In this document: one piece after another, positions 5,989-39,322 of the stretch
Numbering within the stretch: the first letter of the stretch is position 1
How the letters are laid out: the number at the start of each line of letters is the position of its first letter
DNA from: Candidatus Anstonellaceae archaeon
GTDB lineage: Archaea; Micrarchaeota; Micrarchaeia; Anstonellales; Anstonellaceae
Assembly (NCBI GenBank): GCA_038891055.1
Contig: JAWAEU010000006.1
Coordinates: 974 to 64,973 of the forward strand
Length of the DNA stretch: 64,000 nt
Direction: 5' to 3'
Made by a program: the position numbers and the translations under genes
The notes under the pieces: model-generated
The model's input: the letters and a program-made list of their open reading frames with translations, nothing else
Databases searched by the model: none
What the model was told of the DNA's origin: nothing

Positions 5989-6022
5989 AAAAACCACAAA
6001 TTTAATATATAGATAAAAATTT

Positions 6023-21344: not shown

Positions 21345-24300
21345 TTATTTATTTTCCCAATAGCAATAATACAAAAATGGACTATAAGAAAGAGAGGGTG
21401 GATTAGAAGGACTACATGACATATCACTACTATAATTTTCTACTTTAACTTTACCACAGTTAGTGGTGTTTGCACCAAAGTGTGGGTAGACCACCTCCTC
21501 TGCATCATATGAAAGAATTGGGTGAGAAAAGAAAGTATAGTAATTTTCTGAGTCTTTTGTAGTTTGATTTAAGCAACATTTTTCATTTAGCATCCCTAGT
21601 ATAGTACCAAAGTCTGGGTTTGTAAATAATTCCTCCATGCTTTCTATTTCTAATTTTTTAACCTCTGTGAAATATTTTGATGAAGAAGGGATATAATAAC
21701 AAACTATCTTTTTAGAGCTAAATTTCTCTTCGCATAAATTATTTTTACAATAAGTAATAGAGATATAATTCCTTGGACATTCCTTTCCTGGGCAACTAGA
21801 ACCATCTTCGCAATCAGATTTACATAATGAAGGGTCAGATGAAGGACAATTTACACAAAGTTCAGATGCAGATTTGTTTTGAGCATTTACTAAAAGAGTT
21901 GAAACATCTGCAGAAAATTGTAAGTATGAAAGAGAGCCATTAACTAAATTTATAAATGGTTGATCCTTTAGTTCTGAAGTGCTATATACAATATTTTCTG
22001 GCTGTTCAAATAGAGAAGGTAATAGAATACCGATCACTCCGCTTAGTGTTAGTTTATCCTCTATTAAAAAGAGCATATCAAAAAATAAAGGATCCATATA
22101 TGAACTCTGCCTAAAGTATGTGTTTTTGTCGATTCTTAATTTCCACAAAGTTGGCTTTCCTAGATGTATTAGAATTTGTCTTGACAACTCAGCTGCTTTT
22201 TTGACAGTAGAGAGATAATAAGCTGATTTTTCTTTTTCACTAGAGAGGCGAGGAGAATAAGAAAGATCTAAATTTAAAACAATCACATCTACACTCTTTA
22301 ACTTAGCCTCCGAAGCTTGATCTAAGATAGGTGGAAAACCTATGTTTTCCTCTGTAGGGAATTTTATACCAAAGTAACTATAGAGGGAAGAATTTAGATT
22401 ATTTGGAGATGTAAAATAAATTTCTGAAATATTGGTGTCATTTTTTATTTTAATAATTTGCTCGTGTTCTAGTGCTAAAATACAACTTGGGCATAAATTC
22501 CTAGCATTGCTAATCCTAAAATATGCATTAGAAGAAGTAAGAGTATCTAGAATTGAGATCACTGCACTGTGTTTTGAATTTAAAAACAAAAATAAGAAAT
22601 CTGGAAGTGTTTTTACACTACACCTTGCGATCCACTTAACACATAAGCCTTCACTATTTGTTTCTTTACAATAATAGTTTAAATCACCTACACAATAAGG
22701 ATTATCTTCTGGCAGCTGATCTAATTCTCTTTCAAATACGACAGTATTGCCTCCCATTGAAATACCAGCTTTAGAATATTCTTTTAGATCTAAAACAACT
22801 ATTACATTGTTTTCTAAATAATTATGAATTTTAGAAATCAAATAGTTAAAATCTGGAATGGTTGAAGGAGAAGAATCAGGAAGATTTACAACAAAAGGAT
22901 TTGATGGAAGAAATGAATAAAGATTACTATTACATTTACAATTACCAAAATTAACAAAACAGTTAGAAGGACAGTACGAAATTGGAGTGCTATTTACTTT
23001 TTGATATGCTAGAGTTACAAAAGTACCACAACTATCACAAACTCCATAAGAGCGAGTTTTGAGAATATCCAAATTTTCTTCTTTTTTACACTTCCCCAAG
23101 TTTCTAATAACCCACATCTTGTCAAATAAAAATTCTCCTTTTTCTTCTTCCATATAATAGGGATGGAAAGAGAAAGGAGTAACATATTGCTCTATTAAAC
23201 TGTGGTTTTGTAGTGGTATTTTTTTAATAGAGATCTCTAAAATATCAAAGGTAGGATCATTAAAATTGTTAATATTATCTGTAGCTTTAAGGTCACATTT
23301 TTCAATAAAGTCAAATTTTTGTTTTAGATCACTAAAACTAACATTTCTAGAAGAAATTATTATTGTTTTTTCAGCGCCCTCGGTGGAAACTAATTGAAAA
23401 GGTGGCACTAAAACAAAGGCTCTTCTCCACTCCCACCTCATCTCGTCATTTCTATCATTTTGATTAGAAAGCCTGCTTAACTTAGAAGACAAAATTTCAA
23501 TATTGTCTTTCCACACAACCCAATCTTGTGGACCTAACATGCCATTTTTACAGCTTGGTTGTGCCGTATTATTGTTTTTATCTCTACAGATTTTATCTTT
23601 AGAATCAAAAAAGTAATTGTTTGGACAACTTGGTACAACTATTTTGTTAAAATTATTATCAATACACCCATATTCAGAAACTTTTTTTACAATATTTGCA
23701 AATTCTACCTGTTGTTTTTTTCCATCTATAGTCTTTTTATATTTATTAAACTCATCAAAATCATATACTCCCCAATCCCCATCCCAGCTACTCTCTCCCC
23801 TGACTGTTGCACTTGTATATCTCTTATCAAGTAAAAATAAATAATTTTTGCCATAATCATAATAAGCATAAAGATCATATGTTGTAGGATTATATTTACA
23901 CAATACTACTGGTTTTTTTTCAAAGTTTGAAAATAAGTTACAGAGATTTAGACCTGTTTTGCATTCTTCGTCCTCTATCGATCTATCAGATGGGCACTCT
24001 AAAAATGCGTCCTTACAAGAATTAAAAAAAGAACAATTACAGGAAATAGAACTATTATCATTCAAAAAGCAGCTTCCCCTAAGATATTGGCTCTTTATAC
24101 ATCTTGAAGAAAGACAATCGTTGTCTGAAAGACATTCAAATACCTTTGCACCTTCAGGACCAATTCCTTTTTCTCCAGTTTTTCTATAGTAATCCTTTGC
24201 TTCTTCAGGGTATTCTCTCATTAAAGCTGAGACATAAACAGAAGGATCTAAATAATAATGCTCTAGAGATTCTCCTCTTATATTTGTAGGGGGTAGAACA

Positions 24301-25319
24301 TTTATTTTTTTAAATTCAAGTTCTTTAAATAATTCCTTGTTAAAGATTTTAGAACAGAAATTAAAACATAGAATTTTTGAATAATCAGAACTTTTTGGAA
24401 AAGAAATAGATGGGTTGGACATGCAAAAGTAATGAGATTGATTTTCTGAACAAAAATTTAATGGTGCTTTAAAATTATTTTGAAAAACTTTTAGTTTTTT
24501 TAAGCCCCCTCCATAAAATTCAAGGTAATTAAAAAATCTATCCACAACTGCCTCTCCTCCAAAAGACCTAGTACAAAAAACATCTGAAGGTGGAAAATAA
24601 TATCTTGCTACTTCAAAATCTGAAAAAGAACCTAAAAATCCAATTCTTAAATTATTTACTAACCAATTCTTTTCTGTTAACAAACCCATAGTAGACTCAT
24701 TAATATATCTAAATTCACAAACTTTTCCAACTAAGCCTTTGTCTACTTCAAAAATAGAACTCTTAGTACCTCCAGAAGAAGACTTGTATGAATTTTCTAA
24801 TTTGTTAGTTTCATCAGGAGAAAATGAAAACTCCTTTTTTATTTTTTGCTTCTTTTCTCCACACATAAAAATTTTACAATCATTTTGTATACAATTAAAA
24901 CTTGAAACATTTACACAGATAGGATAGGTTATTCTTGGATTTGAAAGAGAATAACAAGTATTTTTTTCATCTTCATTAGTGCAATTTGCCTTATCAAAAT
25001 TACAATTTTTTGAGCAATCATTTGGTCTTATTGGATTTGAAGAGCCGGCGTATAAAATTTTATTTTTGTTTTTATCTAAAACTTCTCCGGAGGATTTGTT
25101 GAAATACTTACATTCTATACCATCAAAGTCCCCACACTCAATCATTTCAAATAAGTCAGAAGTGCCTTCAATCGGATTGGGAGAAAGAGAACAAGAATAT
25201 GTTTCATTAGACTGATAACAACATTGAGCTTCGATCAAATTTTTATTTGGGTTGATAGTACAACCTAAGAGAAACATTAGAACAAAAATTAAAAAAAGAG
25301 TAGAAAAGATTCTTATCAT
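21345..25319 (-). CDS. Large Cys-rich secreted lipoprotein-like protein (1324 aa)
   Basis: N-terminal hydrophobic stretch ending FLLGC; numerous cysteines; GAGGTG SD; last gene of the membrane-protein operon. Confidence 0.75.
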   Translation of the reverse strand: MIRIFSTLFLIFVLMFLLGCTINPNKNLIEAQCCYQSNETYSCSLSPNPIEGTSDLFEMIECGDFDGIECKYFNKSSGEVLDKNKNKILYAGSSNPIRPNDCSKNCNFDKANCTNEDEKNTCYSLSNPRITYPICVNVSSFNCIQNDCKIFMCGEKKQKIKKEFSFSPDETNKLENSYKSSSGGTKSSIFEVDKGLVGKVCEFRYINESTMGLLTEKNWLVNNLRIGFLGSFSDFEVARYYFPPSDVFCTRSFGGEAVVDRFFNYLEFYGGGLKKLKVFQNNFKAPLNFCSENQSHYFCMSNPSISFPKSSDYSKILCFNFCSKIFNKELFKELEFKKINVLPPTNIRGESLEHYYLDPSVYVSALMREYPEEAKDYYRKTGEKGIGPEGAKVFECLSDNDCLSSRCIKSQYLRGSCFLNDNSSISCNCSFFNSCKDAFLECPSDRSIEDEECKTGLNLCNLFSNFEKKPVVLCKYNPTTYDLYAYYDYGKNYLFLLDKRYTSATVRGESSWDGDWGVYDFDEFNKYKKTIDGKKQQVEFANIVKKVSEYGCIDNNFNKIVVPSCPNNYFFDSKDKICRDKNNNTAQPSCKNGMLGPQDWVVWKDNIEILSSKLSRLSNQNDRNDEMRWEWRRAFVLVPPFQLVSTEGAEKTIIISSRNVSFSDLKQKFDFIEKCDLKATDNINNFNDPTFDILEISIKKIPLQNHSLIEQYVTPFSFHPYYMEEEKGEFLFDKMWVIRNLGKCKKEENLDILKTRSYGVCDSCGTFVTLAYQKVNSTPISYCPSNCFVNFGNCKCNSNLYSFLPSNPFVVNLPDSSPSTIPDFNYLISKIHNYLENNVIVVLDLKEYSKAGISMGGNTVVFERELDQLPEDNPYCVGDLNYYCKETNSEGLCVKWIARCSVKTLPDFLFLFLNSKHSAVISILDTLTSSNAYFRISNARNLCPSCILALEHEQIIKIKNDTNISEIYFTSPNNLNSSLYSYFGIKFPTEENIGFPPILDQASEAKLKSVDVIVLNLDLSYSPRLSSEKEKSAYYLSTVKKAAELSRQILIHLGKPTLWKLRIDKNTYFRQSSYMDPLFFDMLFLIEDKLTLSGVIGILLPSLFEQPENIVYSTSELKDQPFINLVNGSLSYLQFSADVSTLLVNAQNKSASELCVNCPSSDPSLCKSDCEDGSSCPGKECPRNYISITYCKNNLCEEKFSSKKIVCYYIPSSSKYFTEVKKLEIESMEELFTNPDFGTILGMLNEKCCLNQTTKDSENYYTFFSHPILSYDAEEVVYPHFGANTTNCGKVKVENYSSDMSCSPSNPPSLSYSPFLYYCYWENK

Positions 25320-25333
25320 CTTTTTTATTCACC

Positions 25334-26473
25334 TCATAAATTTTTAGAAATAAAATGCAATAGATAAGTACTATCGGCTGATAGAAAATTTGCTAAGAAA
25401 TTTATAAATATTACAGTTATTGCTAGAGATAAAAAGGGGTAAAAAAAAGTTCCCATAGAAACTTGGACTATAAATTCTTCTATATCTGAAGAAAAAATAA
25501 TACTAGAATCATTTTCATTTGATTCAAAGGAAGAAAATTGTGCAAATGGCCCAAACTTTGCAAAGCAAATATTATTTATTACATCATTTTTAGTTGGAGG
25601 TTGGGGGGTTTGTACAACTTTAATTAATGAAGGTTGAATGAAAATATATGCTATTGGAAAAATAAAGTAAAAACCTATAGCTACAGCTATAAATAGACTA
25701 CCAATTCCTCTAAGGGGGGGAAATAGTCTTAGCAATAAACCTACTGGCAAAAAAAACGACAGGAGATTTTGCTCTAGATATGTTACAAAAAAGTATTGCG
25801 CTACTAAAGAGATAGAAAGAGAAGCCAACCTATTTGCAATATAATGATAACTCTCAATTTCTCTATAAACACCTTCCTCCCATATTTTACAAGATTGCCA
25901 ACCTACATAAGATTTACATTTCGAACCTTCTGTTTCTTTTACCATATTTGCGAGATATGCTGAGAGATAAAGTACATTAGATGCTTCTAAGTATTCTGAA
26001 ATTTTACATTTTATTAAAGTAAATGGTCCTGCCTGTTGATCCCATAATTTAATTTTTTGATCTTGACAAGAAAAAACAGCTGAGGAAGGCAAAAAAAGAT
26101 CCTGAATAAAAATAAAACCTGTGTTTAATAAATAAACAAAAGCTACTATTCCAAAAGCGGTTGCCGTTGTTTGATAGAATTCAGAAATTGCAAATCTTTT
26201 TACATTTTCTGCATCAAAAGCCTTTGCTAACATATAAATTATGACGTTTGCAAAAAAGCAAATGGCAACTACAATAGCTGAAAATTTTATCCAATAAAAT
26301 TCATCAGAATAATTAGATTGTTTGTACCAATTTACATTAAAGAGTTTAAAGTCTTTAGCTGAAGTAGTATTAGACTTCTGGAGCCACTCCCCCCAATCCT
26401 GAGAATATAAAATTCCTCCGAACAGAAGGAAGAATAAAGAGAATTTAAGCAAGATATGCAAGTTTTGAAACAT
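25334..26473 (-). CDS. Polytopic membrane protein, paralog 6 of the tandem family (VirB6/CedA-like candidate)
   Basis: Start moved to ATG 26473 after GGTGGTGAT; motifs YMLAKAF..ENVKRFAISE and LPVGLLLRLFPPLRGIG..FIA..IGFY..FP. Confidence 0.75.
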   Translation of the reverse strand: MFQNLHILLKFSLFFLLFGGILYSQDWGEWLQKSNTTSAKDFKLFNVNWYKQSNYSDEFYWIKFSAIVVAICFFANVIIYMLAKAFDAENVKRFAISEFYQTTATAFGIVAFVYLLNTGFIFIQDLFLPSSAVFSCQDQKIKLWDQQAGPFTLIKCKISEYLEASNVLYLSAYLANMVKETEGSKCKSYVGWQSCKIWEEGVYREIESYHYIANRLASLSISLVAQYFFVTYLEQNLLSFFLPVGLLLRLFPPLRGIGSLFIAVAIGFYFIFPIAYIFIQPSLIKVVQTPQPPTKNDVINNICFAKFGPFAQFSSFESNENDSSIIFSSDIEEFIVQVSMGTFFYPFLSLAITVIFINFLANFLSADSTYLLHFISKNL

Positions 26474-29400
26474 CAATATCACCACCTAAAATTGAAGCAA
26501 GATCTCTTACAAATGAAAGCACTGCTAGCAAAATTATCGAAGGTATAAAAAATGCTAAAATAAAGTTGATTGCAGAAAGACCAATATAAATATTTAAATT
26601 AGGGCTAAAACTTTCTTTTGACTTTGGAAATATTGGCTGCAGGGTTTTTTTATCTTCACCATACTTAAATATAGCATCACTATTTGGAAAAGTATCTTTT
26701 GTAAATGAGCCGACTTCTACAAGGTCAGCTAAATAGGAAAATTTATTAATGATGAAGGAATCGATTTTAATTCTGTTGATGGTAGAGGAATCTTTACAAA
26801 CATCATCAGAATTAAAAACTAGACAATGAATTGCTAACTTTGTGTGTATATTTTCTAATAACAAACCATATAATGCATAGCCAAATGGGAAGAGAATATA
26901 AAAGCCAATTCCAATTGCAATCATAGCTGCGCCTACATTTTTCAAAAAAGGCATGCACCTAAAAAATAAACCTACTGGTAATAAAAATATAATTAATCCA
27001 GAAGAAGAAGAGAGGAAAAATAATAAAAAGTAGTGCGTAAGAACATTGAACAAATAAAAGTTATTCAAATTAAGTAGAAAGTTAAAAACAGCCATATAAT
27101 TATAGGAAAAAGAATGAGGATTTTCATTTTGACCAAAAGTCATTTGAGCAGATTTTCTAATAATCTCTACTATTATGCTTTCTCCTGAATATGTATAGGC
27201 AGAGCCAGAAATATGGAAATAGGCAATATCTCTTCTGAGAATTATGATAGTTGAGTGGATTCTTTCTGATAGGTAATAGAGAGTATTTTGAGCAAACTCA
27301 GCTATTGAAGTGTCCATGTGCACTGTTTTTAGAGGTTCTAATCCAAAAAGATTTGAAATTGAAGAAATATTGACATATTTTTCACAATTTAAAACTAATA
27401 GTTGCCCAACTAAAACTAAAAATACCCCTAACAAAATTACTTCTGTAATTTCTCTTTTTGACCATTCCAACAATCTTGGATTAGAAAAAAGGTTTCCGAT
27501 CATAAATGCTATTGCAATAACAAAAACTATAGATGCAATACCAACTAAAAAGAATTTATAATACTGTGAAGTTATAACTTCTTTTTCAGAACAAAAAGAT
27601 TGAGGGGTTTGAGGAACAAAAACGTCTTTTGAATAAAGTTTAATGATTAAAAAGTCTGAAAAAGTGAATGTTTTGTGAGTTACAGAATCTAAAACCTTCC
27701 CTCTAACTTTTAATAGGCAACCCTTTTCTTTAAATTTAACAACTAACTTTAGATAGTCTTTGGTTTTTTCTACTAGCTTCCCTTCACATCCTCCTCCCGA
27801 AGTGATTGGAACTATATAAGAATCAAAATCGTAATCCCTTATATCCTGTGGAGTTAGAAAAACAAAATTTATATCGATATTTTTATTGTCATCTAAAAAT
27901 AAACGACTATTTTTCTCTAAATCTTTTTGTTTTTCACTATCTAATTGCTGCCCACCTACCAAAACTTTATCTATTGCCAAAATAGGACGCTCCAATGCAA
28001 ATTCAAAGGACTTATAAACACCTTTTTTGCTGTCTGTAAATGGATAAACTAAAACACTTAATTGTTTTATATCATAATAGGTATCTAAAAAAATATAATA
28101 AGGAAATCGATCAGGCACAATAAAATTAGTAAAATCAACTGTTTCTCCGTTAAATAAAGTTGCTCTTACTTCAATAACAGCTTTTGGTGAATTTTCTAAA
28201 TTTTTTATTTTGATAATTATATATTCATTCTCTTTTATTTTGGAATTTGGAACCATAAATGAAAGAGCACGGCCTTCCTTTTTGGAACTCTTATAAATAT
28301 CAGCACTAAACTTAATGGGACCAATACATGGACCATTATAAATTTTAATAGTTTTATTCTCAAAAATAACAGAAGAATCCAATGGCTCACTGCCTGCTTT
28401 TAGAGTAAAAATTAATTTATCTTTGTCCCCATTTGGACAAATTGAAGAAGTATTTAAAAGTAAAGACACATTAACAAAATTTGGAGAGAAATAGTCGCTA
28501 TTAGAAATTAGAGGATATTGAGGATTAGGAGTAAATAGCCCACTGGTACAATTCTCACTTGTACAGTTCCACTTATATAAAAAAGTAGTTTTTCTATCAT
28601 TAGAATCAATTACTTCTAATTCTCCCATCAAATAAAAGCCTGTTGAAAAATTTGTAGGCCTCATTGAACGTGGATTTGATGCGTTTGCCTCGAAAAATAT
28701 TCCCCTCTCCCTACTAATCCTAATATCATAAGAAAGATCGTAAATTCTTAATAATTGATATCCTCTCTGACAAGAGAAATTGTATGACAAATCCCCATTC
28801 GACCAATTTATTCTAAAAGGTGAATAGGATGCATTTAGCGTAACAGTTAAATTTAAGTCTAATCCAACTTTCTTATCAGTGTTTCTATCTGAGCTTCCAT
28901 TTCCCCTAAAGAGTAGCGAAAACAACTCTGGATCACAGCTAGAGTTATCAGATCGATATGTTGTATTACCATTTATAACAACTACTCCCCTACAATAAGA
29001 GCCATTGTTTATTTGTATTTCAAATGGTAAATTTATAATTTGAGTACTTAATTCGTCATCATCTCTCAAATTTATTTTAGTTCTACAAAAATTAATGTTA
29101 TTTTCTATAAGAGAGATGTTTGGTGGATAATGCTCAAATTTGTATTTTTTTACTACTAGAGGGAAGTATTGGCTTGCTGTGCCTTTAGTTATATTTAATC
29201 TATAGATCAAATAGATTTCATCAGAAATTGGAGAAATTATTTTGGTGAAATTATCATAAGGGTCAGATAAATAGGCAAAAGGAATTATTTTACGACTGTC
29301 GGCTTCCACAATTACATAGCACAAATTTTGCCTAAACCTCTGATTACAAAATACTAATTTAGAACGAGAATCTAAATTTGGAGATTCAGATAGAGAAATT

Positions 29401-29633
29401 TCTGAAAAATTAAAAATGCAAGGATCCTCTGGATTTGATGGGCAATCCAAAACTAAAAATCCATAATAAGAGGGGGAAATTTTATTGAAGCTCTCCACAC
29501 TTCCTTCAGCTAAATTATCTGGATCTGGAGGATTAGAAGAATTATAAAAGTAAACTAGAGGTGGAGTGAGAGGGGGAGGTACTTGCGCAACAAACACTCC
29601 CAAAAATAATATTAAAAAAAATAATTTTTTCAT
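26445..29633 (-). CDS. Polytopic membrane protein, paralog 5, with a ~690-aa N-terminal extracellular region
   Basis: Signal peptide; FMIGNLFSNPRLLEWSKRE; LPVGLFFRCMPFLKNVG..MIAIGIGFY..FP; LGGDID at the C-terminus. Confidence 0.75.
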   Translation of the reverse strand: MKKLFFLILFLGVFVAQVPPPLTPPLVYFYNSSNPPDPDNLAEGSVESFNKISPSYYGFLVLDCPSNPEDPCIFNFSEISLSESPNLDSRSKLVFCNQRFRQNLCYVIVEADSRKIIPFAYLSDPYDNFTKIISPISDEIYLIYRLNITKGTASQYFPLVVKKYKFEHYPPNISLIENNINFCRTKINLRDDDELSTQIINLPFEIQINNGSYCRGVVVINGNTTYRSDNSSCDPELFSLLFRGNGSSDRNTDKKVGLDLNLTVTLNASYSPFRINWSNGDLSYNFSCQRGYQLLRIYDLSYDIRISRERGIFFEANASNPRSMRPTNFSTGFYLMGELEVIDSNDRKTTFLYKWNCTSENCTSGLFTPNPQYPLISNSDYFSPNFVNVSLLLNTSSICPNGDKDKLIFTLKAGSEPLDSSVIFENKTIKIYNGPCIGPIKFSADIYKSSKKEGRALSFMVPNSKIKENEYIIIKIKNLENSPKAVIEVRATLFNGETVDFTNFIVPDRFPYYIFLDTYYDIKQLSVLVYPFTDSKKGVYKSFEFALERPILAIDKVLVGGQQLDSEKQKDLEKNSRLFLDDNKNIDINFVFLTPQDIRDYDFDSYIVPITSGGGCEGKLVEKTKDYLKLVVKFKEKGCLLKVRGKVLDSVTHKTFTFSDFLIIKLYSKDVFVPQTPQSFCSEKEVITSQYYKFFLVGIASIVFVIAIAFMIGNLFSNPRLLEWSKREITEVILLGVFLVLVGQLLVLNCEKYVNISSISNLFGLEPLKTVHMDTSIAEFAQNTLYYLSERIHSTIIILRRDIAYFHISGSAYTYSGESIIVEIIRKSAQMTFGQNENPHSFSYNYMAVFNFLLNLNNFYLFNVLTHYFLLFFLSSSSGLIIFLLPVGLFFRCMPFLKNVGAAMIAIGIGFYILFPFGYALYGLLLENIHTKLAIHCLVFNSDDVCKDSSTINRIKIDSFIINKFSYLADLVEVGSFTKDTFPNSDAIFKYGEDKKTLQPIFPKSKESFSPNLNIYIGLSAINFILAFFIPSIILLAVLSFVRDLASILGGDIDVSKLAYLA

Positions 29634-29634
29634 A

Positions 29635-30738
29635 TTAAGACAACCTTGATAAAATTGATAAATCTATTTCCAAACCTAAGCCATGGGCAATTGCTGAAGA
29701 GAAGGAAAGAGTGAGAGAAAGAGCTAAAAGTGGAATGAAGATGGATTTTAGAAGTACAAAGCTTAGAATTTTATCTGAATTGCTATTAAGATAATTTAAA
29801 ACAAAATTAGCAGTGTTTGGTATATCCAAGGAATTATAACTTTTTGGATCACATGAGACTGAATCTGGAATAGAATTTTCTAAGTCAGCATTCTGAAGAG
29901 TTATAGAATTTCCCTTTATTATTTTATGAAAATAAGAGCCATAATAGACATTATAATAATCCAGCAAAATTAAAAGAGAGGTGGGGAAAACAAAATAAAA
30001 TGAAATACAAAGAGAGACTAAAAATATACCAACCTTTCTGGTGAGATTAAAAAATGCTAAAAATAACCCTATTGGAAATAAGATACAGATTATTTGATTT
30101 GCAAAAATATTCAAGAAAAATTTAGTAAAGTAAATGCCAAAAGAAGCCGTAGAGATTGCAGTATAGAGCATATTTAGTGGTCCTCGAAGAGAAGAAAAAG
30201 TAGAACATACTCCAATACCAAAACCATTTCCATAGAAATTAAAGTAATAACTCTTAGAAGATTCAATTGCTATTGACTCTGCAAATTTATCTAACCTGTC
30301 ATTTAAAACTTTTAGGAGTTTATTATTTTCCTCTACTAATATAAATGCCTTTTGCTGTACAGTTATATTCTCCTGACTGACCTTTAGAGATTTGATATCA
30401 ATATAATTATAATTACTACTAAATCTGTTGCTCCATCCACTTGGATCTAAATTGAATGACTTAGCCAAATTTTTAGAAATAGGATTGAAAGACAATAGAA
30501 CAAAGACTAATATTAAAACCAAAATTGCCAAACTCTCGATTTCTTTTATTGCTAAGAACTTTAAATCTTGAAAATTAAACAAAGACCCTATAATCAAAAG
30601 AATTGCTATTATAGAAATTGCTATTGAGATTGAAACAAAGAGAGAGTTAAATAAACAGCTATTTTTAGGTGCATAATACTGAGCAAAAAGCAAATTTGAT
30701 AAAAATAAAAACAAAAATAAAAATCTGCTCGATCTCAT
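29635..30738 (-). CDS. Polytopic membrane protein, paralog 4
   Basis: IIGSLFNFQDLKFLAIKE; FPIGLFLAFFNLTRKVG...S..ISFY..FP; LGLEIDL at the C-terminus. Confidence 0.75.
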   Translation of the reverse strand: MRSSRFLFLFLFLSNLLFAQYYAPKNSCLFNSLFVSISIAISIIAILLIIGSLFNFQDLKFLAIKEIESLAILVLILVFVLLSFNPISKNLAKSFNLDPSGWSNRFSSNYNYIDIKSLKVSQENITVQQKAFILVEENNKLLKVLNDRLDKFAESIAIESSKSYYFNFYGNGFGIGVCSTFSSLRGPLNMLYTAISTASFGIYFTKFFLNIFANQIICILFPIGLFLAFFNLTRKVGIFLVSLCISFYFVFPTSLLILLDYYNVYYGSYFHKIIKGNSITLQNADLENSIPDSVSCDPKSYNSLDIPNTANFVLNYLNSNSDKILSFVLLKSIFIPLLALSLTLSFSSAIAHGLGLEIDLSILSRLS

Positions 30739-33700
30739 TTAAATCAACTTAAACAAGCCTGGGATTTCTATATCTCCACCTAAAAATATCGAAGTGCTTC
30801 TTATAAATGAGAGTAAAATCACAATAGAAAATGATGGTAGGATGATTGAAGGAATTAACAAAAGTCCAATTCTTATCCATCCAGTTTGAGTATAAAGCCC
30901 TTCTGCAGAAGTTGCAAAATTTAAAAGGTTTGACAGACTTACCCCCCCACTAGAACTACAGATATCACAATCTTGTCTAACATAAGGTAAATACTGGCAC
31001 TCTCTTTTACAATTTTCTATGCAGCCTTCGCAAGGATCTTTCTCAAAAGAGAAAATTCTACATTGCTTAGCATGAAAATCATCACATGAATAATCTACAT
31101 TCTCAATAAGTTCATTGAGGCTCTTTTCTTTTCCTTCCGGATCACAACCATAAGAAAGCTGGTTGTCTAAAAGTGAGGGGTCGATTCTACAGCGAATTGG
31201 GCAACCAATTGCTTTTTTAGATGGAATTGCACAGCTCTGACTAGAGGAAGATGGATTTACTTTTATAAAACATTTATCACAATTCAAACCACTTAAAATA
31301 AAATAGAGAGAACCCTTAGAAGGATCTAAACCAAATATTCTATAAACAACTGGACATAACTGGCAATTATCATCTGACTTTATAGTTTGTTTTGTTACCC
31401 CACCAACCTTTGTTGAAAAATCTACAGATGTGTCAACTACATTATGAAAAGCTAAGCCTGGCATTGCCCTTGCATTATAGGAGGCAAAACAGATTGGATT
31501 AATAGCACTAATCACAACTGACCTTCCACCATAATTAATTGAATAATTTCCACAAAAGACATAATTTGGATTTGCATTAGTATCGATAGTTCCACATTCT
31601 CTATAATCAGAATATCCAGAAGCTGCGATTAAATAATCCAACCCTGCATATTTTGAACCTGGGCTACAGTTGTAGGGCTGATAGCCAAGCTCTAAGCTAA
31701 AGTTTATATAAAGTCTTTGTCCTTGTTGAGTATAACTACAATAATCTTCCCACCAATGATTTTGTGCTACAGTTCCATCCGGTTTAGTATCCCCTCTTCT
31801 ATATGTTGTAGAATTATACACTACGATAGATTTATTACAAAGTGGGTTAGAATGACTCTTGTTCAGAGGAATGGAGTCAATTCTCACCCAATAATTCCCT
31901 CCTCTCAGTTGATTACAACTATAAGCCTCGTTTTGGCAATAAGATAAATCATTAGACCTTATTAAACCATTACAAAATGGGTCACAGTTATGAGAGGGAT
32001 TGGAGCTTTCAAATTTTAATGTGAAATTACCACATTCCACGAGATTGAGGTTTTTTAGCTCATCATACCTACAAGAGTAAGGACAAGCACTTCCATTAAT
32101 CATCGCTCTATCTTTAGAATTACTCTCGATATATTCGCCACACATCTCAAATCCTCTCTGAGAGGAAGAAGGAATACTTAAAATAGGATAGCAAGCAAAG
32201 TTTTCTAAATTTGCAGGATTAGAATTTAAGGCAGAAAGAGAAGGGAAATAAGAGCTATCCACTCCCTTTGGTAAATAGTAAGAGGAGGAATAATTTAAAA
32301 CCACCAATAGGGTGTAGTTATTATCATAAAATTGTTTAGTTCTTTGGTCAAAGTTACAGTTTGAAATACTAAAATCTATTCTTGAATATCTGTTAGAGAT
32401 ATCTAATAGAGTAGCAAATTTGGGCCAAGTTAAAATAAAACATTGGGCTCTACAAAATGGAGAAGAGCAAAATTTTTGCACATCTTTATCAAGAGTACAG
32501 TCAATGGATACAAATGGATTTGATTTTACTCTAACAGAATTTTGGTCATCATTCCAAGTATTTAAAAAAACAAATCTACTATCTCTTGCCAGAAAGTCTG
32601 GACAAAAAACTTCATCTTTTAGAGATTGATATGCTATTCTAACAGGGGAAATAGATGGGACTTTTGTGCCAGCGTATAAATTATAACCTTGGCAATTTTC
32701 ATAATAACCTTGGCTATTGTACGAAGTACATTCTATATACCTAGAAGGATCAAAATGACAATCATGTATAAGAAAAGATTTAGAATAAAAAGCTGCAAAT
32801 AGAGGATTGTTTGTATCAATAGCAATTTTGGCTATTGAGGAGGGATTTAAAAATCTACAAGAAGGTGGACAGCGAATACAATTTAATAAATTTTCATCAG
32901 TTATTTTTCCATTAGAAAATTTAGGGGGAGGAGAACAAATAGAATAGTCCATATAAACTGAGTTTAGAAATTTGCTAACATTTATCTTACAGCTGTTGGG
33001 GCATCGATTGCAAGCCTTTGAAAACATTCCCTCTTCACAATATTTCTCAAATATCGGGTCTTTATATTCTTTAGAATTTTCATCAAAATAAAGCCTGCAA
33101 TCCAATGGGCAGACATTTGAATTTCCACTATCTCTTAAATTTCTAATACTTAGAGGAAGACCACACAATTCAGTACAACTATCAGAAGCTTCTAGTGGAG
33201 AATAAAACATACAAATTGGCAAATCTGAGGAATCTCTATAGTTTAGGCAATCTTGGCAATTCTTACATTCTACTTTATTTTTAAATACCAATTCTATTTT
33301 TCCATCGTTTAATTTTGTATATACCCTGCAAACTGATGGACAATCTTTACATTTTTCTGCACATTCAAATCGATTAGTAGTTAAAGAATTAGAATTCTTG
33401 GGAACTTTTGTTGTAATTCCGATAGAGTTTTTATCGGCAGGAGAAAACGATTTAGAATAATCGATTTCTGGATAGCGATATTTACAGGAGATAGGACAAT
33501 CTCTACAATTAGAAGGATTGCTACAGTACATATCATTTGACTCATAATAAGAAGTATAGTTTTCTAAACCCATCGCTCTAATAAATTTGCAGGCATGAGG
33601 TAGATTGTTACATGCAGTTTCATTGCAAACCTTCAAATCAGTTGGCAAAAACCTGCAGCCCTCTGGGCAGTTTTTAGAATCAGCAACTTTTATTTTTCCT

Positions 33701-34785
33701 ATAACTTTTTGTTCGTCTTCGTCCTCTACAAAACAGGGCTGAATTCCTTGACTAAGTAAATACTCGTATAGATCTTTATCTTTATTTTTCTCATCCTCTG
33801 ACTTTTTTTCTATTAATTGTATTAAATCATAGTAAGAAATAAAGGATGAAGGCATATAAATTCCAGCAGGGTTAATAGAGGTATTATAAGCTATAGGCGG
33901 ATTTAAATCGCACTCTTTTGGACAAATTGATTCATTTTGATCTACTCCTTGGGAGCCAAAAATTGCACCTCTAAAAGTAAACCAAGAGATTAAATAAGTT
34001 AGAGGCCAAATTAGAAATAAACCAATTCCAATAGCTATTAACAAACCACCTAATCTTCTAGTGACAAATAAAGTTCTAAATAATACCCCTATAAAAATTA
34101 AGAATGGACCAAAAACAGGTGCTATAAAATTCAAAAATGCTTTTTGTGCTAAGAGTGAGATTAAAAAGGAAGATAAAAATTGCCCTTCTGTTGTTTTTAT
34201 TTCAACATCTAACCTTTTAAATGCTGCAGGTCTGCTACTTTCTTGATATCCAAGATCCCATATATTCATAGAAGAACCTCTGGAAAAAAATGTTTCTCGT
34301 CCTGCTTCTATAGATTCTTTCAAATTAACTTTTAGGGAGTTATCTGTTAATTTAATTAGAGTGTCCAGATAACAATTAGAATATTCCATATACCGAGGTA
34401 TATCTTTATTATAAATATAATTAGAGGGACAGGGGGAAACAAGAAAATTAGAAGAGTTGATTATAAGCTGATCTAAAAATAAGATTACGCCTAAAATAGT
34501 TGTGATTAAAATTGAAGTTACAAAAAGTTGCCCTATTTCAGTTTTTATTAAAACTTTTATCTCTGGGATATCAAAAAAAGAGGCTCCAAAATAACCTATT
34601 ACTAAAAGAGCTATAGATATAGATAAAAATAAAATTAAAAATACAAAAAAGTTTGATAAAATTAAAGAAATTGGGTTATAACTTTTTCCAAGATAACTTA
34701 CAAAATCTAAATAACTTTTTTCTAAATCATTCTGAGAAAAACAATATCCAATCAAAAATAAAAATAAAACTATTAGTTTTTTCAT
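30739..34785 (-). CDS. Polytopic membrane protein, paralog 3, with a ~1000-aa Cys-rich insertion
   Basis: ATG 34785 preferred (GTG 34797 is the alternative); IGVLFRTLFVTRRLGGLLIAIGIGLFLIWP; CPxxC(R/K) repeats; LGGDIE at the C-terminus. Confidence 0.75.
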   Translation of the reverse strand: MKKLIVLFLFLIGYCFSQNDLEKSYLDFVSYLGKSYNPISLILSNFFVFLILFLSISIALLVIGYFGASFFDIPEIKVLIKTEIGQLFVTSILITTILGVILFLDQLIINSSNFLVSPCPSNYIYNKDIPRYMEYSNCYLDTLIKLTDNSLKVNLKESIEAGRETFFSRGSSMNIWDLGYQESSRPAAFKRLDVEIKTTEGQFLSSFLISLLAQKAFLNFIAPVFGPFLIFIGVLFRTLFVTRRLGGLLIAIGIGLFLIWPLTYLISWFTFRGAIFGSQGVDQNESICPKECDLNPPIAYNTSINPAGIYMPSSFISYYDLIQLIEKKSEDEKNKDKDLYEYLLSQGIQPCFVEDEDEQKVIGKIKVADSKNCPEGCRFLPTDLKVCNETACNNLPHACKFIRAMGLENYTSYYESNDMYCSNPSNCRDCPISCKYRYPEIDYSKSFSPADKNSIGITTKVPKNSNSLTTNRFECAEKCKDCPSVCRVYTKLNDGKIELVFKNKVECKNCQDCLNYRDSSDLPICMFYSPLEASDSCTELCGLPLSIRNLRDSGNSNVCPLDCRLYFDENSKEYKDPIFEKYCEEGMFSKACNRCPNSCKINVSKFLNSVYMDYSICSPPPKFSNGKITDENLLNCIRCPPSCRFLNPSSIAKIAIDTNNPLFAAFYSKSFLIHDCHFDPSRYIECTSYNSQGYYENCQGYNLYAGTKVPSISPVRIAYQSLKDEVFCPDFLARDSRFVFLNTWNDDQNSVRVKSNPFVSIDCTLDKDVQKFCSSPFCRAQCFILTWPKFATLLDISNRYSRIDFSISNCNFDQRTKQFYDNNYTLLVVLNYSSSYYLPKGVDSSYFPSLSALNSNPANLENFACYPILSIPSSSQRGFEMCGEYIESNSKDRAMINGSACPYSCRYDELKNLNLVECGNFTLKFESSNPSHNCDPFCNGLIRSNDLSYCQNEAYSCNQLRGGNYWVRIDSIPLNKSHSNPLCNKSIVVYNSTTYRRGDTKPDGTVAQNHWWEDYCSYTQQGQRLYINFSLELGYQPYNCSPGSKYAGLDYLIAASGYSDYRECGTIDTNANPNYVFCGNYSINYGGRSVVISAINPICFASYNARAMPGLAFHNVVDTSVDFSTKVGGVTKQTIKSDDNCQLCPVVYRIFGLDPSKGSLYFILSGLNCDKCFIKVNPSSSSQSCAIPSKKAIGCPIRCRIDPSLLDNQLSYGCDPEGKEKSLNELIENVDYSCDDFHAKQCRIFSFEKDPCEGCIENCKRECQYLPYVRQDCDICSSSGGVSLSNLLNFATSAEGLYTQTGWIRIGLLLIPSIILPSFSIVILLSFIRSTSIFLGGDIEIPGLFKLI

Positions 34786-34789
34786 ATTT

Positions 34790-35749
34790 CTACCCACTAA
34801 AAAATCCTTTTAAACCTTTAAATACCCCTATTGTTGCAGTAATCACAAGAACTAAAACTAAATTTGGTATGAAGACAGCTAAAATTGTGAGAAATGCTAC
34901 AAAATTCAACGAATCATTTATTGTGCTATCTCCAAGATTTATTATATTGTTGAGTGCAGAAGGATCTGAAGTTTGGAAAGTTTTTTCAATAGAGACAAAG
35001 CAAAAAACATAAGTTAGTGGAATAAAAATATAGGATGAAATAGAAAAAGCTATTATAAAATCACCTGCATCTCTCAATAGAGGGAAAATCCTCAAAAAAA
35101 TTCCTGCAGGTAAAATAAAAGCACTTAGCATAACAAAAAGATTTTCTACAACAAATTTTTGTGCATAAATTGAAGCCAAAAGAGGGACTAAATAAGAATT
35201 TAGGATTTCCATATAGCTTGCCCACTCTCTTTTTCCTGCCAAAAAATATACTCCAAAATTTCCTGAAAATTGCGCAATAGAATCTGCATTTGCATACAAT
35301 TCCATAGAGCTAAATTGGTTATTAAAAGATTCTTTTAACAGATATATTGATTTTGAAGTAGTAAGAGAAATAATCTTATCAAAATAATTTAGAATATAAA
35401 ATATTGGATCTTGTTTAATTGGTAAAAAGAATGAAGCAGCAAGACAAGAAAAATTAATTGCTCCTATAATTGTTAGTATTAAAATAACTGTCCAAAATAG
35501 AGTTAATCCTTCTGTTTTAGACCACATTAACAAATAAGGATTGTGTAACATATTACCTAATAGATAAGAAATAACCACTAATGAGATTACTAAAGCTATT
35601 GCTGCTAAAATTTGAGAGTTTATATTAAATAGTTGATCTGTGGAGTATTTGAAACATGTTATTGGACCAACTAATAGATTATCACTAGATTGAATAGATT
35701 GACAAACTGATAGCCCAAACAAAATTAAAAATATAAAGTACTTTTTCAT
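34790..35749 (-). CDS. Polytopic membrane protein, paralog 2
   Basis: YLLGNMLHNPYLLMWSKTE; LPAGIFLRIFPLLRDAG.FIIA..I..Y.FIP. Confidence 0.75.
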   Translation of the reverse strand: MKKYFIFLILFGLSVCQSIQSSDNLLVGPITCFKYSTDQLFNINSQILAAIALVISLVVISYLLGNMLHNPYLLMWSKTEGLTLFWTVILILTIIGAINFSCLAASFFLPIKQDPIFYILNYFDKIISLTTSKSIYLLKESFNNQFSSMELYANADSIAQFSGNFGVYFLAGKREWASYMEILNSYLVPLLASIYAQKFVVENLFVMLSAFILPAGIFLRIFPLLRDAGDFIIAFSISSYIFIPLTYVFCFVSIEKTFQTSDPSALNNIINLGDSTINDSLNFVAFLTILAVFIPNLVLVLVITATIGVFKGLKGFFSG

Positions 35750-35751
35750 AT

Positions 35752-36984
35752 TTATAACAACCTCTGCAAGGCAAATAAATTTCCTTCTTGACCCAAAATT
35801 GCAGAAAATTGTTTACCTAAAACTATAGTAAATGTAAACTGCATTATAATACAACTAAAGCTTAAAAGAGCAACTAAAACCAAATTTGGCAATACAAATT
35901 TTACTAATGGAACATAAAAATCTTCCACAATTTGTTGTGGGGGAAATACCCCATATGACCTAATTCCATCTCCAATAATAGTTGGAATAATGGCCCTTAT
36001 TAAATTAATAACAGCTTGTATAAAACTTGCAATTGGTTTTCCTCTTATGATTGGGGAAAGAATATCCTGAGTCTTCGGCTCTGCCTCACCAGGAGGTATT
36101 GCGGGAAAGAGTAAATTGATAAGCTGTGCAATATCCTGGGCAGGAATAGCAGTATCCATAACATAGAAAGGGGAAAGAAGATAAGCCCAGGCTTCCAATG
36201 AAGAATAATCTGGAAGCTCGATATCTGGAAAATCTAACTTGTTTGAATAATCTACAAATTTTTTATCTTCTGCAAGCTTTATAGAATAGTCAAATAATGC
36301 TGAACTTAGATCTACAGAAAGAGGAAAAATGAAAATAAAAGAAAGAGTATAACCTAAAATAAATCCTCCTATTTTTTTTGTGAAAGGTATAAATCTTAAT
36401 AAAACACCTAAAGGCAAAAGAAAATTAAAACTCAAGAAAGCTAAAAATAAAACAATGTTAAAAGTACCTCTTATCAAAAGAATTAGAGAAAAACAAAAAT
36501 CTATTGCATACATTAATTGGCTTAATATTAGATTTGTACCATAAGAATAAGATTTTCCTTCAGTATAAGAATAAGCAAAAAAAGATAACCCAATAAGCTT
36601 ATTGGTAGATAACCCTGCTTGAAAATTATAATTAAAAGTACTAAATTTTGAAAAAAGAAAACTATTTTTTATTAAAATTGAGGATTGCTCTAATAAGTAG
36701 GATAAAATAGTTTTATTTGCTATTTTTGGGTAGGGAGGAGATCCAAAATTATAGGAATAAAATGAAAAGTCACCAAAACGACTTTCATTTACTTTAAAAA
36801 AGTTGAAGATAAAAATTATTACAATGCAGACCCCAAAGAAAAAAAATAGATCTGCTAATTCTTTTTTTACCCAAACTTTCAAAAAAGAAGAGGAAAAAAA
36901 ATTAGCAAATAAAAAAGCTATAGCTAAGATAAAAGTTGAAATAAGAGTACCGTAAATAATTGCAGAATATATATCAAAAAACAT
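35752..36984 (-). CDS. Polytopic membrane protein, paralog 1
   Basis: FLFANFFSSSFLKVWVKKE; LPLGVLLRFIPFTKKIGG..LG..L.F...FP; LGQEGNL at the C-terminus. Confidence 0.75.
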   Translation of the reverse strand: MFFDIYSAIIYGTLISTFILAIAFLFANFFSSSFLKVWVKKELADLFFFFGVCIVIIFIFNFFKVNESRFGDFSFYSYNFGSPPYPKIANKTILSYLLEQSSILIKNSFLFSKFSTFNYNFQAGLSTNKLIGLSFFAYSYTEGKSYSYGTNLILSQLMYAIDFCFSLILLIRGTFNIVLFLAFLSFNFLLPLGVLLRFIPFTKKIGGFILGYTLSFIFIFPLSVDLSSALFDYSIKLAEDKKFVDYSNKLDFPDIELPDYSSLEAWAYLLSPFYVMDTAIPAQDIAQLINLLFPAIPPGEAEPKTQDILSPIIRGKPIASFIQAVINLIRAIIPTIIGDGIRSYGVFPPQQIVEDFYVPLVKFVLPNLVLVALLSFSCIIMQFTFTIVLGKQFSAILGQEGNLFALQRLL

Positions 36985-36988: not shown

Positions 36989-37564
36989 TCATGTTTGTGT
37001 TGTTTTGTTTATTTTTTTAAAATATACATCTACTAAATTTTCAAGTGCTTCATGGATGTTTAGAAGTTTTTTTTGTGGTAAAATATAGAGGCGATCAATT
37101 TCATATTGGTCTTCTATTTTTTTAATAAAATGCAACAAAACACTACCATTACTATTATAAAATGTGCTGGCTAGACTAAACAATACGCAAATATCATAAT
37201 AAATTAAAAACTGTAGCAATAACCTTGAAAATTCTTCTTCTGAATTTTTTATTTCAAGAAACAATTTTTCTATATTTTGAAAATCAGAATTTAGTGCGTA
37301 TTTTTTTATGTTTTTTAGATAATCTGGAAAAGATTGATCAAGATAAGAATATAAGTTAACAAAGATTTTTTTAAAAGATATTGTGGCATACTTTTTTAAA
37401 AAAGGTTTCCCCATAATAGAAACTAAAAAGTTACCTGAAGATAAAAATAAAAGCTTTTGTCTTTTTTGATTTTCTAACTCTAAATTTCTAATTGCATCTA
37501 ATAAATCTTTTTTTGACTTTTTTATAATCGAATTTTCCAACGAACTAAAATCCAAATCAAACAT
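36989..37564 (-). CDS. Hypothetical soluble helical protein in the membrane operon
   Basis: ATG 37564 (GTG 37579 is the alternative); no signal peptide; 4 bp from the next gene. Confidence 0.6.
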   Translation of the reverse strand: MFDLDFSSLENSIIKKSKKDLLDAIRNLELENQKRQKLLFLSSGNFLVSIMGKPFLKKYATISFKKIFVNLYSYLDQSFPDYLKNIKKYALNSDFQNIEKLFLEIKNSEEEFSRLLLQFLIYYDICVLFSLASTFYNSNGSVLLHFIKKIEDQYEIDRLYILPQKKLLNIHEALENLVDVYFKKINKTTQT

Positions 37565-37597
37565 ACTTCCTCGACCCACAATTACCTATTTAAAGAA

Positions 37598-39106
37598 TCA
37601 AAATGTCTTGTATTTATTTAAGGCATCCAAAGTTGCCTTATATAGAGAGTAATTAAATAATGGATCCTCGACTGCTCCGCTGCTTTGATTTACTAAATGA
37701 TTTATAAAATCATCCACACCTCTATTACCTGTTTTCAAGGCCGTCTCTCTTTTTGTAATTATGGTCAAAAGATCTTGTGTAAGACCTTTTCCTAATTGAA
37801 CAATAGTAGTTAATGCCCAAATTCCTAGTTCTTTTTTCCCTTCAGCTCCTTTATTTTGATTTAGGTTTTCAAGTTGTTTGTTTACTAAAGCTCCTATTTC
37901 TCTAACTGATTGATCTACTACTGAGTTAAGAATAGCGCCTCCCCCTACAGCAGCAGTATTTTTTAGATCTTTAACAAACTCTTTTGTAAAAAGGTTTTTA
38001 AAAAATGGGCCCTTTGTAAAAGGAGCCCTTGGAGTAAACTTTGACTTTCTTGGAGTAACCACAAAAGCAACCATATTAACCAGTCCTTTTATGCCTGCAA
38101 TTGTTCCAATATCTTTTGCTTTTTGTGTTATACTATTCTCTTCTTCGCCATCACTTTTTAATAATTTAAAACCACTAGAAATGGGATCCTTCAGCAAGCC
38201 CTGTGCTAAACCAATATATTTATTGACAGTAGGTGGTAATGATGAATTAGCAGTAGATTTTTTAGTATCCTCAAGAGGATTAGAATTAGAAGTATTAGAA
38301 TCTGATGTGGTTTGTTGATTTGATTGTGTGGCAGCTTCTTTAGAATCATTTTTTTTACCTCTCATAATATCTTTAGAATTCTTTATGTCCTCTGTAGCTT
38401 TGTCGGCTGAATCTACGACAGCCGTTGCAGTTTTTAAAACATTATTAATTTTACTTTCATTATCTTTTTGTTTTGACATGGGAGAATAATATAGCGTAGA
38501 AGAAAAATGCCTCGAGGGTAGATTTCTAGCAACTCCAAAATCAAAGAACATCAAAGGATTTCTACCCATAATAAAATTAGCTAAAAATATAATACCTGCA
38601 ATTATAGTGGAAAACCAACACAAATTAAAAGTTGCGTTTTGCTTTCTTGGTGTACAGAATTTTAACTGAGTAAATGACTTTGTATAGTTTTGAGAATAAT
38701 CTTGAGGTAAATTAGAGGGGAGAGAAGAGCGGCAGTAATTTTTTTGTAATGAAGGAGAGCTAGCGAGTGGTACAAATTCAGCCGAGAGAACATAACAAGT
38801 CTGAGCTGAAACATCAAGTTCAACTGCTGCTCTTCCTTCCTCATTAGTTACAACATAGCAAGAGAATCTTGAATCGTCAGATTCACTTTTTAGAGTTAGA
38901 AGAATAAAACCATGTTTTATTGGAATAGTTGGACCTACCAAAGAATCTCCTTTATTTTCTGCAAAAAGGTTTAAGTATACCTTTACCTTATCTCCATCCA
39001 ATTCATAATAAGATCTAATAAAAGAAGAATCGAGGGGGGGTTGGCATACTTGAGAAAAACTAAAATAAATAAAAAATAATAAAAATATCACCCCAACTTT
39101 TTGCAT
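37598..39106 (-). CDS. Signal peptide, extracellular domain, TM helix and cytoplasmic tail; first gene of the operon
   Basis: MQKVGVIFLLFFIYFSFS signal; four Cys in the ectodomain; TM WFSTIIAGIIFLANFIM followed by GRNPLMFFDF; S/T/N/K-rich tail. Confidence 0.7.
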   Translation of the reverse strand: MQKVGVIFLLFFIYFSFSQVCQPPLDSSFIRSYYELDGDKVKVYLNLFAENKGDSLVGPTIPIKHGFILLTLKSESDDSRFSCYVVTNEEGRAAVELDVSAQTCYVLSAEFVPLASSPSLQKNYCRSSLPSNLPQDYSQNYTKSFTQLKFCTPRKQNATFNLCWFSTIIAGIIFLANFIMGRNPLMFFDFGVARNLPSRHFSSTLYYSPMSKQKDNESKINNVLKTATAVVDSADKATEDIKNSKDIMRGKKNDSKEAATQSNQQTTSDSNTSNSNPLEDTKKSTANSSLPPTVNKYIGLAQGLLKDPISSGFKLLKSDGEEENSITQKAKDIGTIAGIKGLVNMVAFVVTPRKSKFTPRAPFTKGPFFKNLFTKEFVKDLKNTAAVGGGAILNSVVDQSVREIGALVNKQLENLNQNKGAEGKKELGIWALTTIVQLGKGLTQDLLTIITKRETALKTGNRGVDDFINHLVNQSSGAVEDPLFNYSLYKATLDALNKYKTF

Positions 39107-39213: not shown

Positions 39214-39322
39214 GGCCAAGATGGTGTAACGGCAGCACAAGGGATTGTGGAAGCCCTATGCTAAAATATTAGCAAAATGCTGCAAAACTCCCTTAGTCTG
39301 GGTTCAAATCCCAGTCTTGGCC
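39214..39322 (+). tRNA. tRNA-His(GUG) with a 37-nt intron (39251-39287) at 37/38 and a genome-encoded G-1
   Basis: Acceptor stem GCCAAGA/TCTTGGC plus C73; D arm GTGT..GCAC; anticodon stem AGGGA/TCCCT; T loop TTCAAAT; BHB helix TTGT/GCAA with bulges GGA and AAC; CCA not encoded. Confidence 0.93.

Follow-up and report, generated by a model that had tools for sequence, protein, structure and literature searches.

The window analysed here is a stretch of 64,000 nucleotides from Candidatus Anstonellaceae archaeon, a member of the phylum Micrarchaeota (NCBI GenBank assembly GCA_038891055.1, contig JAWAEU010000006.1, positions 974 to 64,973 of the forward strand); coordinates given below are those of the window unless stated otherwise. 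It carries six tandem genes for paralogous membrane proteins, C to H, the third of which (gene E) encodes a protein with an insert of 1,033 amino acids between the last two of its five core transmembrane (TM) helices. This insert evolves under purifying selection, although the constraint on it is a little weaker than that on the membrane core, and it appears to have grown in steps from a smaller cysteine-rich loop at the same position. In our judgement it probably, though well short of certainly, forms a disulfide-stapled and probably N-glycosylated structural crown or spacer on one subunit of a multi-subunit envelope complex.

Read from a GTG, gene E has 1352 codons. In the database the protein (P0002) has 1348 residues and begins at an ATG four codons downstream, at position 34785, which is likely to be the true start. 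All six paralogs share a core plan, which opens with an N-terminal signal or anchor and continues with TM1 and TM2, an outer loop that is helical, a TM3-turn-TM4 hairpin and, at the end, one more TM helix with a short tail; two signatures recur in the paralog alignment, LLPxGxxLRxxPxxRxxGxxxIA...P in the hairpin and LGGDIxxxxLxxL in the tail. In protein E the plan is laid out as follows, with the sidedness of the loops as predicted and with model confidence given as the predicted local distance difference test score (pLDDT) from AlphaFold2 (AF2):

30739-34797, minus strand: gene for the third paralog (E), 1352 residues from the GTG start
34732-34797, minus strand: N-terminal signal peptide or anchor, residues 1-22 (MKKLIVLFLFLIGYCFSQ), from the translation and the alignment with the paralog N-termini
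34474-34650, minus strand: TM1 (residues 50-68), a short cytoplasmic loop and TM2 (residues 90-108), from hydropathy
34168-34473, minus strand: first outer loop, residues 109-210, helical, with invariant C123 and C142, from hydropathy and alignment and from the helical extensions in the model of paralog F
33988-34167, minus strand: TM3 and TM4, joined by the Arg-rich turn RTLFVTRRLG on the cytoplasmic side; this hairpin is conserved more strongly than any other in the family
30883-33981, minus strand: the whole insert, residues 273-1305 (1,033 residues), between TM4 and TM5
32923-33981, minus strand: first older, proximal part of the insert, residues 273-625, common to orthologs of about 700 residues (AF2 pLDDT about 83)
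31051-32922, minus strand: nested, lineage-specific expansion of the insert, residues 626-1249, from alignment occupancy
30883-31050, minus strand: second older, proximal part of the insert, residues 1250-1305, with the cysteine cluster CEGCIENCKRECQ...CDIC, which returns to the membrane
30742-30870, minus strand: TM5 (residues 1310-1328) and the cytoplasmic tail FLGGDIEIPGLFKLI, the signature of the E ortholog group

The N-terminal signal or anchor lies below the hydropathy threshold that was used for the TM calls. By hydropathy, 1,039 residues separate TM4 from TM5 in protein E, compared with roughly 35-135 residues in the five other paralogs. This agrees with a preliminary description of this DNA, which had placed motifs B and C about 1020 residues apart in the 1350-residue paralog, and the interval that it had assigned to the insert (30880-33945) is covered by the insert as placed here. 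Alignment occupancy matches residues 273-625 and 1250-1305 to the shortest class of orthologs and marks residues 626-1249 as nested additions; within these, residues ~775-925 and ~1100-1250 are common to the class of about 1,100 residues, and residues ~650-775 and ~925-1100 are restricted to the longest class, the segment from 925 to 1080 being modelled at low pLDDT (~45). The AF2 model of residues 200-1352 has a pLDDT of 75.4 and a predicted template modelling score (pTM) of 0.58, and the insert in this model is 55% coil, 30% helix and 15% strand.

Cysteine accounts for 7.0% of the insert (72 of 1,033 residues), compared with 1.24% of the proteome. The eight short motifs quoted in the preliminary description, which share the pattern CPxxC[RK], were all found within it:

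33652-33669, minus strand: CPEGCR motif, residue 377
33481-33498, minus strand: CPxxC[RK] motif, residue 434
33325-33342, minus strand: CPxxC[RK] motif, residue 486
33094-33111, minus strand: CPxxC[RK] motif, residue 563
32986-33003, minus strand: CPxxC[RK] motif, residue 599
32854-32871, minus strand: CPxxC[RK] motif, residue 643
32068-32085, minus strand: CPxxC[RK] motif, residue 905
31186-31203, minus strand: CPxxC[RK] motif, residue 1199

Five of the eight, together with a CPKEC, lie in the first older part of the insert, and the sixth (residue 643) stands just past it. The motif is strongly enriched: in 5000 shuffles of the insert the mean count was 0.03 and no shuffle reached eight, the extended form CxxCPxxC[RK] occurs four times against approximately zero in the shuffles, and the eight copies are all that the whole predicted proteome contains. 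The earlier suggestion that they mark repeated units stands in part. The insert contains no tandem repeat, self-BLAST shows no internal duplication and the spacing from motif to motif is irregular (36-294 residues); what does recur is a degenerate module of ~25-45 residues at irregular intervals, which was recovered by profile-profile comparison. When the eight motif-centred units were aligned with one another using hhalign, the median probability was 60, against 5.5 and 0.5 for motif-free control segments that contain cysteine (Mann-Whitney p = 1.3e-6). In the AF2 model all eight motifs take up a like form, in which a C-P pair is followed by one helical turn that ends in the second cysteine, then by the arginine or lysine and a beta strand. 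Because this local form is shared by all eight, the recurring element is, as modelled, a small structural module and not a domain repeat.

These cysteines most likely serve to staple the domain by disulfides, since motifs for heme and ferredoxin-type clusters are absent, the cysteines are conserved and some of their losses are paired, and since the other cysteine-rich open reading frames (ORFs) of the genome are signal- or pilin-like at their N-termini and a DsbA-like protein is present. In nine orthologs, with identities down to 32%, 63 of the 72 cysteines are invariant, compared with 8.7% of the other residues, and 52 of the 72 are at least 90% conserved among 47 long orthologs. Losses tend to involve two positions together (680 with 732, 1082 with 1103, and 786 with 1148), and in the last case both cysteines are substituted in the same two sequences. 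The DsbA-like protein (Thioredoxin_4) is membrane-anchored, has a CPFC active site and is encoded outside the window in the same genome (C2:144198-145085). As for the other cysteine-rich ORFs, the N-terminus is hydrophobic and resembles a signal or a pilin in almost all of them. A cysteine-rich domain of this kind might alternatively bind metal or iron-sulfur (Fe-S) clusters and have a redox function, for example as an extracellular electron conduit or, if the topology were inverted, as a cytoplasmic cluster carrier; the many CxxC and CxxxC spacings and the four CxxCPxxC triads would suit this, and residues 475-523 show a very weak match to the cysteine-rich C-terminus of NosR (expectation value (E-value) 0.6, 8 bits). 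We consider it very improbable. A motif search of the insert returned neither CxxCH, as the preliminary description had also stated, nor CxxCxxCxxxC(P), and no Fe-S family in Pfam or NCBIfam is matched by protein E or its orthologs. The triad cysteines are variably kept among the 47 long orthologs (C486 in 37, C514 in 21), which argues against fixed cluster sites, and the topology and glycosylation sequons favour a location outside the cell.

That the insert lies outside the cell had already been proposed, and three independent lines of evidence make this the most likely location. The turn between TM3 and TM4 carries arginines that are nearly invariant in the family alignment (R228 and R234), as fits a cytoplasmic loop under the positive-inside rule. 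In paralog G, TM1 is preceded by a signal peptide and then by an N-terminal domain of 674 residues with 20 sequons; the core is therefore predicted to have its N-terminus outside, five TM helices and its C-terminus inside. Finally, the insert itself contains 15 N-glycosylation sequons (NxS/T) and is probably N-glycosylated.

The preliminary description had gone further and suggested that the insert is a stalk or tip that could reach or recognise the host surface, with hypervariability of the insert as a check. When the insert was compared with the TM core among orthologs it was not hypervariable, being conserved to about the same degree as the outer parts of the core. Its identity to orthologs ranges from 66% down to 32%, close to that of TM1-TM2 and of the first outer loop and below that of the TM3-TM4 hairpin and TM5. 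The ratio of nonsynonymous to synonymous substitution rates (dN/dS, Nei-Gojobori method) was computed for ten ortholog pairs and ranged over 0.10-0.47 in the insert and over 0.07-0.32 in the core. Two of the pairs were unsaturated; insert and core had ratios of 0.161 and 0.165 in one of these, and of 0.167 and 0.075 in the other. The length of protein E is nearly constant in three genomes of the genus (1346-1352 residues). It is consistent with an adhesin that acts on the host surface and diversifies with host range that the insert is large, predicted to lie outside and glycosylatable, that Micrarchaeota are mostly ectosymbionts (PMC11329633, PMC8975820), that loop size varies widely among lineages (~280 to 1,235 residues) and that the insert evolves up to about twofold faster than the TM core in several pairs. 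A variable host-recognition tip is nevertheless unlikely: dN/dS is never near 1, the cysteines and many other positions are invariant in orthologs as little as 32% identical, length hardly changes within the genus, closed genomes from another order lack the large domain and encode an E-type protein with only 6-8 cysteines, and it has been argued that Anstonellales count among those Micrarchaeota that depend less on a host (PMC12892359). Purifying selection thus argues for a rigid structural part over a variable adhesin, which is further disfavoured because the large loop is missing from the sampled closed genomes of that other order. Any contact of the insert with a host or partner cell is speculative.

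The distribution of the loop was traced in 78 related loci from public genomes, all of them from Micrarchaeota. The gene order C-D-E-F-G-H is kept in nearly all complete loci, usually followed by a gene for a cysteine-rich lipoprotein of ~1,300 residues, and the protein at the E position, which has the tail LGGDIEIPG, is cysteine-rich in all 78. Its sizes fall into three classes, of ~680-800, ~1,100-1,180 and 1,300-1,760 residues. The short class, which has a loop of ~380 residues with typically 32 cysteines, is found in most genomes of the order, and no cultured named species was found among its homologs, which are 'hypothetical proteins' of metagenome-assembled genomes (MAGs). Another order is represented by eight closed genomes, drawn from two further families of the class; in these the E-type protein has 456-501 residues, 6-8 cysteines and no CPxxC, and its tail reads LLGGDTxLAGL in six of the eight. 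It follows that the giant cysteine-rich loop was elaborated within this order and is not phylum-wide. The view that the domain had been grafted onto the channel subunit also needs revision, as a cysteine-rich loop of ~380 residues already occupies the same position of the same paralog and the form of ~1,000 residues arose by nested expansion. Growth would have been stepwise, from a loop with 6-8 cysteines such as that of the other order, to ~380 residues with 32 cysteines, and then to ~1,000 residues with 72 or more, the newer pieces being nested within the older. The core family is far more widespread: it is present in 266 of the 301 genomes of the phylum (156 of the 176 high-quality ones) and, in a set of 1.84 billion clustered proteins, has 2,662 representatives at an E-value <= 0.001. 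A search of the phylum with the insert alone matched just nine genomes, so that single-sequence searches badly understate its spread.

Searches for known relatives returned nothing for the insert. Neither protein E nor eight of its orthologs matched a Pfam family at an E-value <= 1, and the operon neighbours add nothing for the insert; the insert, protein E and its orthologs had no match at a meaningful level in NCBIfam; the insert and the family profile gave zero matches to PDB sequences at an E-value <= 10; and a Foldseek search of PDB and BFVD with the insert model found nothing at an E-value <= 0.001. The core offers a lead. In an NCBIfam scan of 97 family members, CedA (profile NF041796) was matched by 12 and CedE (NF053657) by 11, with a best E-value of 8e-5, and each other family of the 18,950 was matched by at most two members; these recurrent matches are all below the curated cut-off of 330 bits, and TM composition could contribute to them. 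Of 41 related genomes, 22 have paralogs that match the CedA profile, in every case within profile positions ~70-235 and mostly within ~100-200, and the part matched, in paralogs other than E, is the TM3-TM4 region. CedA and CedE are VirB6-like membrane proteins of crenarchaeal DNA import (the Ced system of Sulfolobales), and CedE is described with five TM helices (PMC9905601, PMC11868833). It is plausible but unproven that the core shares a distant ancestry with CedA/VirB6, and by the family's own cut-off protein E is not a member of CedA/CedE.

If the insert is indeed a disulfide-stapled crown or spacer, its mode of action may be sketched as follows. The ectodomain would emerge from subunit 3 where TM4 and TM5 end on the outer side, forming a loop that joins the two helices, and would be built of many small disulfide-braced elements, in which the motif cysteines, one helical turn apart, would each bond a neighbouring element. 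The resulting rigid crown or spacer might reach into or through the S-layer space, perhaps docking the cysteine-rich lipoprotein encoded by gene I and/or the S-layer. The anatomy of the protein, the motif enrichment, the conservation, the synteny and distribution and the lack of known homologs come directly from the analyses; the outside location, the disulfides, the assembly of the six paralogs into one hetero-oligomeric complex and the structural role of the insert are inferred from sequence and models. Several points weigh against this reading. A VKOR homolog was not found in the genome, and DsbB was not searched for. Loop cysteine counts are mostly 32, an even number, in the short class and mostly odd in the mid-size class of ~1100 residues, where nearly all members have odd counts between 71 and 87 (for example L021, L028, L056, L058 and L081); not every cysteine can therefore pair within the loop, and in the mid-size class one may be paired outside it or be free. 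As to the core, the best CedA score of any family member in the 41 related genomes was 26.8 bits against the cut-off of 330, the window's own paralogs have no CedA match at an E-value <= 0.1 and the nine E orthologs scanned have none at an E-value <= 1. A Foldseek search of PDB with the model of paralog F found nothing at an E-value <= 0.001, and no VirB6 was among the best 50 of 351 weak matches. Scanning of the operon and its flanks revealed no linked ATPase or pilin, including none of the VirB4/CedB/HerA or VirB2/CedA1 types; the genome has four DUF87 ATPases elsewhere, none of them beside a family member.

A related proposal is that the complex serves simply as an S-layer pedestal or pseudo-periplasmic spacer, whose cysteine-rich crown contacts the S-layer protein and which takes no part in transport or in contact between cells. 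It is in keeping with this that the Micrarchaeota S-layer protein shows no evident anchor in the membrane and that a stalk protein distinct from it has been suggested (bioRxiv 10.1101/2021.04.28.441871), that the family occurs nearly throughout the phylum, that the insert is conserved as a structural part would be, and that six paralogs would fit a hexagonal lattice. A hetero-hexamer encoded by one operon would, however, be an unusual route to a high-copy lattice anchor, and the weak similarity to CedA/CedE points to a channel-type ancestry. We hold a pure pedestal to be decidedly unlikely. The insert-bearing protein was also considered as the S-layer protein of Micrarchaeota itself and rejected, the published S-layer protein being a different, cysteine-poor one.

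Within the window the paralogs belong to a co-directional block with three further genes:

25334-36984, minus strand: the six tandem paralogs, C (410 residues), D (319), E (1352), F (367), G (1062) and H (383), aligned over the shared core
21345-25319, minus strand: gene I, 1324 residues with 63 cysteines, a putative lipoprotein that comes after the paralogs in most loci
36989-39106, minus strand: leader genes A (502 residues, bitopic) and B (196 residues, soluble), in the same co-directional block

The model of paralog F (pLDDT 85.6, pTM 0.81) contains helices of 27-52 residues, and the TM helices appear in it to continue outward as a helical bundle. Paralog G (26445-29633, minus strand) has an N-terminal outer extension of ~690 residues, giving a protein of ~970-1115 residues, which occurs only in loci with a long-class E (for example L013, L014, L016, L018, L064, L074 and L079) and is absent from every locus with a short E; this suggests that the ectodomains of E and G expanded together. 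A seventh, solitary family member of 336 residues, with the tail LALGSEFNLQLFESL, is encoded outside the window (C1:175169-176179) and has no obvious functional neighbours. Some Micrarchaeota possess a second six-paralog cluster (L083, L085, L086 and L088; L092), in which the protein at the E position has 357-570 residues and 3-13 cysteines. Members of this second cluster give the best CedA-profile matches (E-value 1.4e-6); one such locus (L092, G005:C3:113000-132900) adjoins a divergent ORF of 1849 residues without a Pfam match, and no ATPase or pilin was present in the four flanking genes scanned at the second locus of a relative. The start of the membrane operon in the window is adjoined, on the opposite strand, by an intron-containing transfer RNA (tRNA) gene (39215-39322, plus strand; Rfam 51.7 bits) that was missed by ARAGORN.

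The window is archaeal in gene content: it encodes the two subunits of DNA polymerase D, subunits of the exosome and of the proteasome, and a tRNA with an intron. Its GC content is ~30%; the source genome is 881 kb in size and 97% complete. Named homologs of protein E come from MAGs of Candidatus Micrarchaeota or Anstonellaceae, and those database copies that bear a name are termed 'hypothetical' or 'uncharacterised' with one exception: P0003, an ortholog with 66% identity, is labelled 'NADH-quinone oxidoreductase subunit J' by NCBI. This label is unsupported by our searches and looks spurious, a transfer based on hydrophobic helices. No account of the six-paralog operon was found in the literature searched. 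The genome holds several other extremely cysteine-rich ORFs. One lies in the window (4969-6087, minus strand) and has 50 cysteines in 372 residues (13.4%), another, outside it (C2:1190-4732), has 151 cysteines in 1180 residues and a pilin-like class III signal, and further ones were found outside the window at C8:4614-6509 and C1:220110-221537.

The E ectodomain is among the largest and most cysteine-dense proteins of its 881-kb genome, which implies a heavy cellular investment. It is a domain with no known fold that shows clear stepwise growth at one loop of one subunit, and it offers a concrete target for structure determination and for localisation in enrichment cultures. The gene-level basis of both cell-surface building and cell connection in DPANN archaea is largely unknown, and the E operon bears on both. 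If the weak link to CedA/VirB6 were true, the channel family derived from type IV secretion systems (T4SSs) would extend to a new and much-elaborated archaeal form. A bolder proposal, to which we give little credence, is that the six paralogs, lipoprotein I and the leader proteins make up a new envelope machine of Micrarchaeota, descended from CedA/VirB6 and without a linked ATPase, in which a pseudo-hexameric pedestal would bear the E crown, and this crown, enlarged enormously in lineages of the Anstonellales type, would form the far end of a conduit from cell to cell. Cryo-tomography of a Micrarchaeota co-culture (that of ARM-1) has shown proteinaceous nanotubes between cells, to which no genes have been assigned (PMC11329633), and the conduit could correspond to these.

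Comparison with known systems places the core and the insert in different company. The core resembles CedA, CedE and TedA in that it is a five-helix polytopic membrane protein, as described for CedE, and in that the N-terminus of CedA is reported to be pilin-like and two members of the present family touch the TrbC/VirB2 pilin family. It differs in that the family scores 15-27 bits against the cut-off of 330, has no linked CedB/VirB4-type ATPase or pilin, and comprises six paralogs in fixed order as opposed to one or two in Ced/Ted loci. To our knowledge no Ced or Ted protein has a giant cysteine-rich ectodomain. Tweety-homolog (TTYH) proteins have five TM helices that extend into an outer helical bundle, and they are weakly matched by the model of paralog F in Foldseek (E-values 0.25-0.31); the likeness is one of shape only, far from significant (TM-score ~0.15), and TTYH is a eukaryotic family. 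Furin-like/growth-factor-receptor, EGF-like and TNFR domains and the variant-specific surface proteins (VSPs) of Giardia face outward and combine dense, conserved cysteines with short CxxC/CxxxC modules and little regular secondary structure. The insert, too, is predicted to face outward, is rich in cysteine and is mostly coil in its model; it differs from all of them in having no Pfam match or fold match in PDB or BFVD at the thresholds given above, and its CPxxC[R/K]-strand motif is the signature of none of them. The tandem paralogs VirB6-1 to VirB6-4 of the Rickettsiales (Anaplasma and Ehrlichia) are bacterial and are encoded within a complete set of T4SS genes that includes ATPases. Their extensions lie at the protein ends, are rich in repeats and vary between strains, and they are not cysteine-stapled loops. 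They nonetheless provide an architectural analogy, as a set of tandem VirB6-like paralogs of which at least one has acquired very large extra domains, in organisms that have reduced genomes and are host-associated (PMC7648143, PMC3556328).

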